Part shown: in pieces, positions 59,494 to 60,835 of the stretch
Layout of the letters: each line of letters begins with the position of its first letter
How positions within the stretch are numbered: the stretch's first letter is position 1
IMG/VR virus record: IMGVR_UViG_3300037184_000121
Coordinates: 1 to 64,000 of that record
Length of the DNA stretch: 64,000 bases
Origin: a virus
Strand: one strand, 5' to 3'
The notes under the pieces: generated by a model
Database searches by the model: none
What the model was told of the DNA's origin: nothing
What the model saw: the letters and a program-made list of their open reading frames with translations, nothing else
Translations under genes and position numbers: made by a program

Positions 59494-59676
59494 ATGATTA
59501 GGTATTTTGTCAAAAGTCAACGGTTTCAATTTAGCGTTAAGGATGAATTTTTATGTGGTGGGAAACCACTATGGGATCAGACACTGATGGATTTAGCAGG
59601 GATTGGTATAAATTATATTCCAGCGGATAATTTAAAATATTTAGAAAAGTGTTGGGAAGAATCTATAAATGAATAG
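59494..59676 (+). CDS. Small protein with C-terminal DNLKYLE motif
   Basis: YIPADNLKYLEKCWEE. Confidence 0.65.
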   Translation: MIRYFVKSQRFQFSVKDEFLCGGKPLWDQTLMDLAGIGINYIPADNLKYLEKCWEESINE

Positions 59677-59884
59677 TATTCCTTGTAAATGTAGTCATGG
59701 ATTAGAGGAGCATTTTCTAAATTCATCAAATAGGATTACATGCAGAGTGTGTGCTGCTCCAATATTTAGCATGAGCAAGGAAGAATGGAATTTAAAAAAG
59801 AAAGAATTAAGGTTTTATTGGGTACATCCATACAAGAGAGATAACCTCAAATATTTGGAGCAGTTGGTGAGTAACAATGACTGA
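59669..59884 (+). CDS. Small CxCxH zinc protein with DNLKYLE motif
   Basis: CKCSH....H, CRVC, HPYKRDNLKYLE. Confidence 0.75.
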   Translation: MNSIPCKCSHGLEEHFLNSSNRITCRVCAAPIFSMSKEEWNLKKKELRFYWVHPYKRDNLKYLEQLVSNND

Positions 59885-60104
59885 GCAAGAGCGTCAAGAA
59901 CAGCGCATTAACTTTTATAAAATAAGGGCTATGTCTCCTTGCCTCTGCAGCCATGAATCTATCGATCATACCTGTTGGGTAGATGCTGATGGAAGTGGAA
60001 AAGGACTTGTGTATCCTGATTTTAGATACTGTGACACAAGGTATTGTGAATGTGAGAAGTATAAACAAGACAATCTAAGATACCTGGAGAGTTTAAGTGA
60101 GTAA
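59877..60104 (+). CDS. Small CxCxH zinc protein with DNLRYLE motif
   Basis: CLCSH....H, CEC..YKQDNLRYLE. Confidence 0.75.
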   Translation: MTEQERQEQRINFYKIRAMSPCLCSHESIDHTCWVDADGSGKGLVYPDFRYCDTRYCECEKYKQDNLRYLESLSE

Positions 60105-60291
60105 AGATTTTCCTTGTGAGTGTGGACACATAAGGCAGTCAGAGGAAACCCTCAACAGTATTTGTGTATCATGGCATGATGATAGAGATAATGATCATCA
60201 ATTAGCTGCATGTCGCTACTGTGATTGTAAGAGATACAGACCAAGTAATTTAAAGTATTTAGAAAGGTTGGCTGAAAAGTATGAATATTGA
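60097..60291 (+). CDS. Small CxCGH zinc protein with SNLKYLE motif
   Basis: CECGH, CRYCDC..YRPSNLKYLE. Confidence 0.75.
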   Translation: MSKDFPCECGHIRQSEETLNSICVSWHDDRDNDHQLAACRYCDCKRYRPSNLKYLERLAEKYEY

Positions 60292-60463
60292 AATGAAAGA
60301 TGATGAAGTATTTGATTTTTTAAGTAAGAAATTGACCGTTCTTCAAGTTGATATAAAATATAATGAGAATGGGCCTACTTGGTTAGCACAGATGGAGAAG
60401 ATAAAATCCTTAACTAGAGCTGTGGAAGTTATAGTTAATAGGAAATTTAATGAACCTGAGTAA
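60281..60463 (+). CDS. Hypothetical protein
   Basis: Coupled ORF within the array. Confidence 0.55.
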   Translation: MNIEMKDDEVFDFLSKKLTVLQVDIKYNENGPTWLAQMEKIKSLTRAVEVIVNRKFNEPE

Positions 60464-60493
60464 TAAAGCCCTTGACAGCACTGGATAATTATA

Positions 60494-60835
60494 ATGTCAA
60501 ACAGTAATAGATATATAAGTGTTTTGAAATGCAAATGTAATCATAAATATTATGAGCATGAGTTTTTCGATAGCAAGGATATAGGGTTTGATATTGATCC
60601 TCGTCCAGAAGCATGTATTTATTGCGAATGTCTTGATTTTGTAGATTGGAGAATAAATAGGTGGTGTATTTGTGGTCATGCTGAAAGTGAACACCATCTT
60701 GGCATTGTATCAGGTTCTACTATTTGTCGTGAGTGTCTTAGGTTTAATATAAATCGTAATACTCATCCATTTAGGCCAGATAATCTAAGATATTTGGAAT
60801 GGAAATGGGAAGAAAAATTAGCTCTTGACAAGTAG
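60494..60835 (+). CDS. Tandem CxCxH zinc-domain protein with DNLRYLE motif
   Basis: CKCNH....H..CIYCEC; CICGH....H..CREC; HPFRPDNLRYLEWKW. Confidence 0.78.
   Translation: MSNSNRYISVLKCKCNHKYYEHEFFDSKDIGFDIDPRPEACIYCECLDFVDWRINRWCICGHAESEHHLGIVSGSTICRECLRFNINRNTHPFRPDNLRYLEWKWEEKLALDK

Follow-up and report, generated by a model that had tools for sequence, protein, structure and literature searches.

The locus considered here raises the question of why a series of small phage genes, several of them lying in one array and some of them encoding unrelated bodies, should end in nearly the same C-terminal motif. It belongs to IMG/VR record IMGVR_UViG_3300037184_000121, a phage record of 107.6 kb (G0) that is only about 56% complete, and the window, i.e. 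the whole stretch of DNA analysed, comprises its positions 1-64,000 (64,000 nucleotides). The relatives G001, G004, G005 and G008 were used for comparison, G005 representing a sister lineage. A first-pass annotation of the window had listed eight ORFs with a near-identical C-terminal motif, and a six-frame regex scan recovers exactly those eight, whose coordinates and translations proved correct on recomputing (Table 1). The pattern N-L-[KRE]-[YF]-[LV]-E is present in 8 of 8, between 4 and 11 residues before the stop and always on the plus strand, while the minus strand of the window has none. The short overlaps described for the array at 59.5-60.8 kb measure 8, 8, 8 and 11 nt, the last one being shared with the untagged ORF.

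Table 1. Tail-bearing genes and associated elements of the window. Zinc cores are putative; the tail column gives the sites of the six-frame regex scan, as spans where both ends are available.
Feature	Position	Strand	Tail	Remarks
65-aa canonical family member	10475..10672	+	10625-10642	next ATG 7 nt past Glu codon
247-aa protein, third body type	48439..49182	+		degenerate tag TGLDYLE, absent from the first-pass list
78-aa member of conserved subfamily (…MTNLEFVEWKYD…)	50352..50588	+	50541	adjoins SF2 helicase, upstream side
62-aa zinc-core protein without full tag	54202..54390	+		remnant RYVES
165-aa protein, second unrelated family (GSYGSCSGCDW…LLPANTRT)	55112..55609	+	55556-55573
sigma-70-type promoter	58343..58371	+		TTGACA-17-TATACT, extended -10; upstream of the array's operon
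60-aa ORF	59494..59676	+	59629-59646 (NLKYLE)	body without Cys/His core
71-aa zinc-core microprotein	59669..59884	+	59843-59860
75-aa zinc-core microprotein	59877..60104	+	60072-60089
64-aa zinc-core microprotein	60097..60291	+	60247-60264	GTG start
60-aa ORF within array	60281..60463	+		neither core nor tag
113-aa protein	60494..60835	+	60782-60799	two tandem zinc cores and one tag
sigma-70-type promoter	60825..60853	+		overlaps 3' end of 60494-60835

Conservation of the tail at the protein level

Over the 107.6-kb record the regex yields 20 tagged ORFs, and an HMM built from the tail only, a check that the first-pass annotation had proposed, detects 21 tags at the C-terminus and 2 at internal positions in a set of about 201 genes. 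The 21 C-terminal tags are all on the plus strand, minus-strand control ORFs of the same record carry none, and neither of the internal tags has a start codon behind it. Extended to the relatives, the scan gives 20-45 tagged proteins per genome, with a distance from tag to stop that varies between 3 and 14 residues. The observation is hence confirmed as real and larger than first described, the motif being non-random and strand-specific.

Concerning the level at which the tail is conserved, 102 tags from four genomes were compared codon by codon. The first Leu is encoded by TTA, CTT, TTG, CTA, CTG and CTC, and Asn, Tyr and Glu by both of their codons, so that all synonymous codons are in use at the tail Asn, Leu, Tyr, Leu and Glu. 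The synonymous variation noted in the first pass, with correctly quoted variants, thus extends over the whole set, and since these codons vary freely the tail must be conserved as protein. An RNA-level origin of the N-L-x-Y-L-E core is rejected on this codon diversity, but is accepted for the residues that follow Glu (see below).

The tail also changes between lineages. Its fifth position is Leu in 97 of 104 tags from G0, G001, G004 and G008, whereas all 30 tags from G005 have Ile or Val there, on zinc and non-zinc bodies alike. Recent gene conversion is unsupported as the source of this lineage-wide change, because tails within one genome, those of G005 included, differ at many synonymous sites. 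The change at position 5 could also stem from cassette turnover combined with tail swapping.

The zinc-core family and the unrelated carriers

Most tails sit on small proteins of the pattern CxC[G]HxxxxH…C…CxC, 50-110 aa in length, in which seven Cys/His residues are conserved and the loops are hypervariable, a core that we infer from its sequence to be a zinc-binding domain. The family accounts for about one gene in eight in this phage and for 16-45 copies per related phage; about seven further ORFs of the 107.6-kb record have the core only. A profile search of public metagenomes returns 1,039 cluster representatives at E<=1e-3, and P0064 is the best-scoring database match of the family to which the 10475 protein belongs.

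The zinc-core family is undescribed, being without a match in Pfam, PHROGs, NCBIfam or PDB. In Pfam-A the best value reached by array members or other carriers is E 0.03, all matches lying far below the cut-offs; array members have nothing better than E 0.07 in PHROGs v4, and a single weak PHROG match is that of 77906 to phrog_17060 (E 0.0037). NCBIfam 20 gives no match for the carriers scanned, the family profile meets only a chance match (E 1.2) among PDB sequences, and ESM Atlas matches are unnamed viral clusters only. Cultured phages yield no DNA match and, in a tblastn search with a consensus-like member, chance-level matches only, and a literature search on motif strings and family description retrieved nothing relevant.

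Two named zinc domains were considered and rejected. The D-N-L of the tail suggests zf-DNL (PF05180; Tim15/Zim17/Hep1, an Hsp70 escort), in which a small zinc domain is followed by a functionally important D-N-L motif. However, PF05180 has no match across the 107.6-kb record at E<=10, array and family members have no Pfam match to it at E<=1, and zf-DNL combines two CxxC pairs with an HLIADNLG-type motif, as against CxC-x-H-x4-H…C…CxC here. The SWIM zinc finger (PF04434, CxCxnCxH) has no Pfam match either, and in the present family CxCxH…H comes first and CxC last.

Structural models are of low to middling confidence. AlphaFold2 gives a pLDDT of 60.8 for the 59877 protein, whose tag is predicted as a helix (residues 66-74), and of 72.9 for a second model; the tag is modelled as a helix following the last CxC. 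With models of such limited confidence, neither finds a PDB match in Foldseek at E<=0.001, VIA-align against 48,161 chains gives nothing at Z>=2, and solved zinc domains, e.g. the N-terminal ones of ClpG, ClpE and McsA, show no sequence or fold match.

The predicted helix could simply be the last structural element of the zinc fold, in which case carriers lacking the core would have arisen by paralogue decay or by accidental fusion to the 3' end of a neighbouring cassette, and the tail as such would be without function. Several data point in this direction: in zinc-core members a fixed 6-8 residues separate the last CxC from the tail, core and tail occur together in 142 of the 148 best database matches examined, and the apparently coreless G0 carriers 104378, 105492 and 105055 retain degenerate CxxC.H motifs. 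Cassettes also fuse by read-through, as in P0065 and in 60494, which does have the tag ascribed to it in the first pass but is a fusion of two zinc cores and not a single-core member. Fusions to large proteins did not turn up, a search for fused forms above 182 aa having found none, nor did any fusion to larger effector domains.

Against this stand the bodies without a core. The 59494 body is negative to a core-only HMM, whereas its tail scores E 1.7e-8 with the tail-only HMM. The 55112 gene belongs to a separate family of 145-176 aa whose body has no similarity to the zinc core and whose N-terminal part, in the 55112 protein, matches phrog_28969; all 15 homologues retrieved, at 44-82% identity, keep the tail, with its Leu and Glu invariant amid an otherwise variable C-terminal region. 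Distant homologues of this body outside the clade have no tail, and their loci no zinc family. At least nine further body types end in the tail in related phages. Conversely, members that have only the core, for example 54202 and 80583, are stably conserved although they lack the full tail; 54202, with a G001 orthologue at 74% identity, had been described as a core without tag, which is true of the core, although a remnant of the tail is kept (…YKARYVES…). Since, in addition, unrelated bodies show the same tail change from one lineage to the other, we regard a purely structural role as unlikely. The sequences largely support the tail as a separable, portable module that is not merely a piece of the zinc fold. 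The earlier proposal of a portable tag, with 59494 and 55112 as its coreless examples, therefore holds as far as separability is concerned (at least ten unrelated bodies, in-step lineage change); no partner was found, and the single common one that it assumes is putative.

Overlap of the tail with the next gene

A feature missed in the first pass is that the tail DNA also serves the next gene as its translation start, supplying both Shine-Dalgarno sequence and start codon. The downstream ORF starts exactly 7 nt past the Glu codon in 36 of the 102 tags, the next commonest offset being found in 9; ORF 50352 has its ATG at this distance, and ORF 59669 is followed by an ATG at 16 nt. All 9 GTG starts have ahead of them a GGAG built from the Leu-Glu codons, compared with 1 of 21 ATG starts; in ORF 59877, for example, CTG-GAG creates a GGAG 7 nt upstream of the GTG of the next gene. 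Only 3 tails have an ATG or GTG at +7 without an ORF. The distance from tag to next start differs by lineage, +7 in one and about +25 in the other: in G005, the stretch after Glu measures exactly 9 residues in 23 of 30 tails, and at the end of most tails AAGGA or GAGGA stands before a stop-start overlap of the form ATGA or GTGA. This overlapping start region largely accounts for the residues after Glu and explains part of their conservation, xxY[DE] resulting from TATGA and the G005 ending …AKK[RK]GL[IV]-stop from Shine-Dalgarno sequence plus ATGA or GTGA. An RNA-level constraint therefore underlies some of the apparent change between lineages.

Cassettes are also gained or lost between relatives. 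In G0, three cassettes lie exactly between a shared upstream start position and an SbcC-like gene, and are missing in G001; the 59.5-60.8 kb array and the 55112 gene are also missing from the syntenic G001, whose members occupy other junctions, and ORF 59494 has no orthologue in G001 or G008. As the tail DNA holds the Shine-Dalgarno sequence and start of the following gene, each gene would behave as a cassette running from start codon to start codon, which could be copied, inserted or lost ahead of any gene while expression of the latter stays undisturbed. The arrays and their rapid turnover would be a consequence of this geometry, which would offer a concrete mechanism for adding or dropping small genes before essential ones with operon expression intact.

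It could be argued that the tail serves mainly gene expression and mobility, as a cassette junction module, possibly with a nascent peptide that acts on termination and on re-initiation at the next cistron, and that it spreads when cassettes insert behind genes. The +7 offset, the GGAG before GTG starts, the scarcity of idle start codons at +7, the uniform G005 tails with their overlaps, and the precise start-to-start insertion or deletion between G0 and G001 all agree with such a role. An RNA signal, however, does not need N-L-x-Y-L to be kept as amino acids over six-fold degenerate Leu codons, and the tag-to-start distance is not even the same in both lineages. Moreover, tags persist with no close follower, as in 104378 and in 60494, which is uncoupled to any downstream start (the next gene lies 84 nt further, behind a promoter), and the two internal tags have no start at all. 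Untagged genes of the 107.6-kb record overlap their neighbours as tightly, and known arrest peptides are a poor match, given how much the distance to the stop varies. We thus hold this explanation to be improbable as the main function of the tail.

A putative docking helix and candidate partners

The explanation that we favour, to which we would give about even chances, is that [FY]-x-x-[DN]-N-L-x-[YF]-L-E forms an amphipathic C-terminal helix acting as a portable docking motif, carried by start-to-start cassettes. Within a single clade of uncultured myoviruses with large genomes of about 190 kb, each phage would encode 20-45 such carriers, all of them early proteins; most would come from the hyper-expanded zinc-type family and the rest would be unrelated proteins that gained the tail. 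Variable heads with a common tail would allow many binders or effectors to be plugged into one hub, for which a host protein, a phage protein or the tagged proteins themselves are candidates. Since the heads differ and the tail is common, the one-hub logic appears likeliest, and it is from this that we infer a docking function and the existence of one single partner. More tentatively, and less likely than not, the tail may represent a protein-addressing code, in which one C-terminal helix routes roughly 10-15% of the phage proteins to a single hub, co-evolves with it (YLE versus Y[IV]E) and can be inserted by cassette, as an undescribed modular architecture for host takeover or counter-defence. 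An anti-defence role of the tagged proteins is conjecture.

The genomic setting suggests early genes. The record contains 20 TTGACA-N17-TAtACT promoters, all on the plus strand and nearly all between 46 and 107 kb, and the tagged genes sit in the replication and early region behind such host-type sigma-70 promoters, with only one of them (10475) in the part holding virion genes. Judging solely from these promoter consensus matches, the tagged genes are probably expressed early.

Docking to a hub through short motifs is well known from the sliding-clamp QL[SD]LF motif, PIP boxes, the gp45-binding C-terminal tails of T4, encapsulin loading peptides and the F-box-like PRANC of poxvirus ankyrin proteins. 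Like these, the present tail is a short, amphipathic motif, often C-terminal in the known cases, that is found on unrelated proteins, is easily gained or lost and would co-evolve with its hub, and the combination of variable head and constant tail resembles the poxvirus ankyrin/PRANC proteins in particular. Its sequence, on the other hand, fits no consensus of the sliding-clamp, PIP, gp45, encapsulin or PRANC motifs. The tail has no Gln and a hydrophobic order different from that of sliding-clamp clients; a phage sliding clamp as partner was rejected on the lack of any PF02767 or PF02916 match in the 107.6-kb record, about 56% of the genome, and on a DNA polymerase of family A.

A special case of docking would be a C-terminal degron or adaptor signal that hands proteins to ClpXP, ClpAP, Lon or a phage AAA ATPase, so that early proteins would be removed on schedule or the host targets bound by them degraded. 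A C-terminal motif on many unrelated, probably early proteins suits this idea, and the phage encodes a 466-aa PF00004 AAA ATPase (68258-69658 of the genome), whose 230-aa N-terminal region is unassigned, as well as a MoxR-like ATPase plus a VWA/metallopeptidase pair; G008 has conserved counterparts of all of them, and G005 of the pair. Nothing connects the AAA ATPase with the tag, however, and the tail matches no characterised degron. The basic and then hydrophobic residues that end G005 tails, which might recall a degron, result from the overlap with Shine-Dalgarno sequence and start codon, and G0-lineage tails, unlike known C-terminal degrons, vary both past the Glu and at the true C-terminus. 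A degron is therefore quite unlikely.

Packaging into the capsid, suggested in the first pass and here disfavoured as highly improbable, would make the tail a targeting or cargo-loading peptide that brings small anti-defence proteins into the head for co-injection; it recalls encapsulin cargo, whose C-terminal loading peptides bind an HK97-fold shell, and the internal proteins of the polymorphic IP locus of T-even phages, which likewise share a short address label, in T4 an N-terminal capsid-targeting sequence of about 10 residues removed by the prohead protease after L/I-x-E, and the terminal Glu would suit such a cut, but the present tag is C-terminal, Y-L-E and not L/I-x-E would precede the cut site, the carriers lie in the replication and early region behind sigma-70-type promoters with only 10475 among the virion genes, and 20-45 different cargo proteins would lack precedent.

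Coming back to the docking helix, its zinc-type carriers resemble a lineage-specific expansion in the Bacillus jumbo phage G, where a small zinc ribbon occurs in about 35 copies (Iyer et al. 2021, Viruses 13:63, PMC7824862), in that a large phage holds dozens of tiny Cys-rich paralogues. For those ribbons the authors proposed a role as transcription factors or DNA-binding proteins, and the passages of that paper that describe them report neither a shared tail on unrelated bodies nor start-site overlap, unlike the family treated here (PMC7824862). Homology was rejected, as profile A2, with 16-45 copies per relative here, finds nothing in the 497.5-kb NC_023719 at E<=1.

Large uncultured phages hold many tiny genes of unassigned role. 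A tail conserved as peptide on unrelated proteins and changing in step by lineage points to one putative hub, whose identification would place dozens of orphan genes of each genome in a working context in one step, and the tail itself could serve as a natural handle for pull-down.

A last observation, which counts against the docking helix, is that the tag has decayed in some orthologues, to GLDYLE in 48439 and to DNIDYLS in 95236; an orthologue of 48439 in another phage has SNLEYLE at this place.

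Tagged genes and the putative zinc-core family

The first-pass annotation had listed eight N-L-[KRE]-[YF]-[LV]-E sites and a five-gene array at 59494-60835. A six-frame scan of the window recovered the same eight, each lying on the + strand with a stop 4-11 residues further on, and no such site on the minus strand, and the array also matches its earlier description. In the whole phage record (G0; 107,602 bp, of which the window covers the first 64 kb; ~56% complete by CheckV), 20 tagged ORFs are obtained with a regular expression, while a tail-only HMM applied to ~201 genes retrieves 21 tags at C-termini and 2 at internal positions, and 0 in minus-strand control ORFs; ~7 further ORFs carry the Cys/His core without the full tail.

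Alignments yield the family consensus C-x-C-x-H-x4-H … C … C-x-C-x2-[FY]-x2-[DN]-N-L-x-[YF]-L-E, in which seven Cys/His positions and five tail residues (D, N, L, L and E) show little or no variation. From this ligand pattern the family is predicted to bind zinc. No Pfam, PHROG or NCBIfam model and no PDB sequence matches it. Searching 1.84 billion cluster representatives with the family profile gave 1,039 proteins (E<=1e-3), all of 50-117 aa, the tail being present in 142 of the 148 best matches examined; neither forms above 182 aa nor members in cultured phages were found. Related virus records hold 16-45 copies each: the 70-kb syntenic relative G001 has 17, a 180-kb record 42, a 25.5-kb fragment 25, and G008, a complete genome of 192,085 bp with terminal repeats, 45. 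Some paralogues are old and conserved in their own right: the 74430-, 92031- and 50352-type subfamilies each have numerous orthologues and tail variants of their own. AlphaFold2 models of 59877 (pLDDT 60.8) and of the 52-aa member 77906 (72.9), both of modest confidence, show a small beta hairpin and a helical tail, and neither matches any solved fold.

The ORF at 60494-60835 fuses two zinc-core units. So does the database protein P0065, which retains both tails, hence read-through fusions of cassettes, i.e. gene units running from start codon to start codon, arise naturally. The nearest published parallel is the zinc-ribbon expansion of Bacillus phage G, with roughly 35 copies (PMC7824862); the family profile finds no match in the phage G genome. 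A link to zf-DNL, prompted by the D-N-L motif, was rejected as the profile test failed.

A tail shared by unrelated bodies

The proposal that the tag is portable largely holds, since non-zinc bodies carry the tail and core-only members are conserved (G001 orthologues of 54202 and 80583, for example, are 74-79% identical). For 59494 (60 aa) neither core nor orthologue was detected, and it may be a decayed copy. The 165-aa 55112 belongs to a separate family with the signature GSYGSCSGCDW … LLPANTRT, whose 15 retrieved homologues (44-82% identical) all end in the tail; its Leu and Glu never vary and its Asn, Tyr and Leu hardly do, whereas the C-terminal region around them is variable. Phrog_28969 matches the N-terminal part, and distant homologues on other viral contigs lack the C-terminal half and the tail, at loci where zinc-core genes were not found. 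At least nine further body types end in the tail across related phages, including the 48439 family (with SNLEYLE in another phage and a degenerate GLDYLE in G0), the 95236 family (DNLKYLE in the sister lineage G005, DNIDYLS in G0) and a 160-aa protein with an intein-like insert in one phage. A tagged protein that measures ~160 aa in L008 (minus strand at 528) reaches 539 aa in a second phage (G004:C1 ~6336-7955, L033), where a large insert resembling an intein or homing endonuclease enlarges it and the C-terminal tag is retained.

Of 104 tags from G0, G001, G004 and G008, 97 have Leu at tail position 5, and all 30 tags of G005, which has 56 of the ~201 G0 genes in common, have Ile or Val there; zinc and non-zinc bodies of G005 behave alike, including its 55112 homologue (NLDIIE…). 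Recent gene conversion does not account for this, because the tails of a single genome vary at many synonymous sites. The change would be explained if the tails bound each other, or bound one shared partner whose requirements differ between lineages. Our best reading, which we hold at about an even chance, is that the tail serves as a portable docking helix, carried by an expanded set of early microproteins and by several other proteins and directed to one putative hub. That the tail is instead an integral element of the zinc fold seems improbable, as this leaves the non-zinc carriers unexplained.

Tail DNA and the start of the next gene

Among 102 tags from four genomes (downstream ORFs of >=40 aa), the downstream start lies exactly 7 nt past the Glu codon in 36, and the next commonest offset occurs in 9. 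The Leu-Glu codons supply GGAG ahead of 9/9 GTG starts at +7 but of only 1/21 ATG starts, which is the compensatory pairing that genuine initiation sites should show. An ATG or GTG stands at +7 with no ORF behind it in only 3 tails, so the frequent …LE-x-x-Y-[DE] mostly reflects the TATGA that overlaps it. Of the 30 tails in G005, 23 end exactly 9 residues after Glu, and most of the 30 finish in NT[AG]-TGA, an ATGA or GTGA stop-start overlap with AAGGA or GAGGA just ahead, within Lys/Arg/Gly codons. Thus, the post-Glu residues are constrained mainly by the start region of the next gene. The N-L-x-Y-L-E core, for which protein-level conservation had been claimed, indeed uses every synonymous codon, including six for Leu, and is conserved at the peptide level. 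The polymerase gene has its GTG start 7 nt past a tagged microprotein's Glu codon in G0 and G001 alike.

G0 and G001 are collinear from ~20 to 85 kb. The 59.5-60.8 kb array, three genes at 74430-75109 and 55112 are missing from G001, which in turn has members at junctions that are empty in G0: where the 56418 and 56573 orthologues adjoin, ahead of DnaB and behind the helicase. At the junction of 74195 with an SbcC-like gene, a start codon equally placed within the upstream tail opens the SbcC-like gene in G001 and the first of three cassettes in G0, where the next starts follow 7, 7 and 10 nt past the Glu codons; this geometry and the presence/absence pattern indicate that genes of the tagged type come and go as units that run from one start codon to the next. 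A single 1,040-aa ORF replaces the array in G001 (38188-41310, reverse complement), and the interval, syntenic with window 57.8-60.9 kb, is hypervariable. A tail serving expression and mobility would account for the post-Glu residues and the arrays; we find it no likelier than the integral-fold explanation, since peptide-level conservation of the core and uncoupled tags remain unaccounted for. Less likely still is a degron, a special case of docking.

Promoters and gene content

Twenty near-consensus sigma-70-type promoters (TTGACA-N17-TA[TGA]A[CA]T) occur genome-wide, all on the + strand and, except one at 26806, at 46-107 kb; none was found on the minus strand. Two of them flank the array (58343 and 60825). 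This set suggests that the tagged genes are most likely early and read by host polymerase, which disfavours the capsid-packaging role first proposed; a capsid-targeting signal fits the gene context poorly and is very unlikely. An extended -10 often accompanies TTGACA-N17-TATACT, and many spacers share an AGATAAC / GTTATCT box, possibly an operator.

Coordinates of features in the phage record
Feature	Coordinates	Remarks
Predicted sigma-70-type promoters, window	26806, 46124, 48009, 48464, 52664, 53831, 57791, 58343, 60825, 63881	+ strand
BT1-family (folate-biopterin transporter, MFS) membrane protein	window 56573-57745	E 9e-41
Untagged ORF inside array	60281-60463	60 aa
Three paralogous genes	window 62808-63485; G000:C1:76989-77522; 98233-98925	225, 177, 230 aa; no Pfam match
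Classic AAA (PF00004) ATPase	68258-69658	separate from AAA_5 pair; 230-aa N-terminal region without assignment
Family A DNA polymerase	G000:C1:77988-80582 (L001:13988-16582)	N-terminal uracil-DNA-glycosylase (UDG)-superfamily domain fused to exonuclease + polymerase domains
DUF2201 metallopeptidase-like plus VWA protein, adjacent MoxR-like AAA_5 ATPase	G000:C1:85601-88046 (L002:1601-4046)	

All long ORFs of the record are on the + strand, and baseplate and tail genes, a DnaB-type helicase, RecA, an SbcCD-like pair and primase are encoded; a clamp gene was not found in these 107,602 bp, and 50,697 cultured-phage records gave no DNA match. The DUF2201/VWA and AAA_5 pair is kept in G008 and G005. 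The BT1-family gene, unusual as a phage auxiliary gene, has a G001 counterpart 57% identical. The three paralogues, recurrent neighbours of microprotein arrays in G0 and several related contigs, could be a mobile element or homing-type gene.
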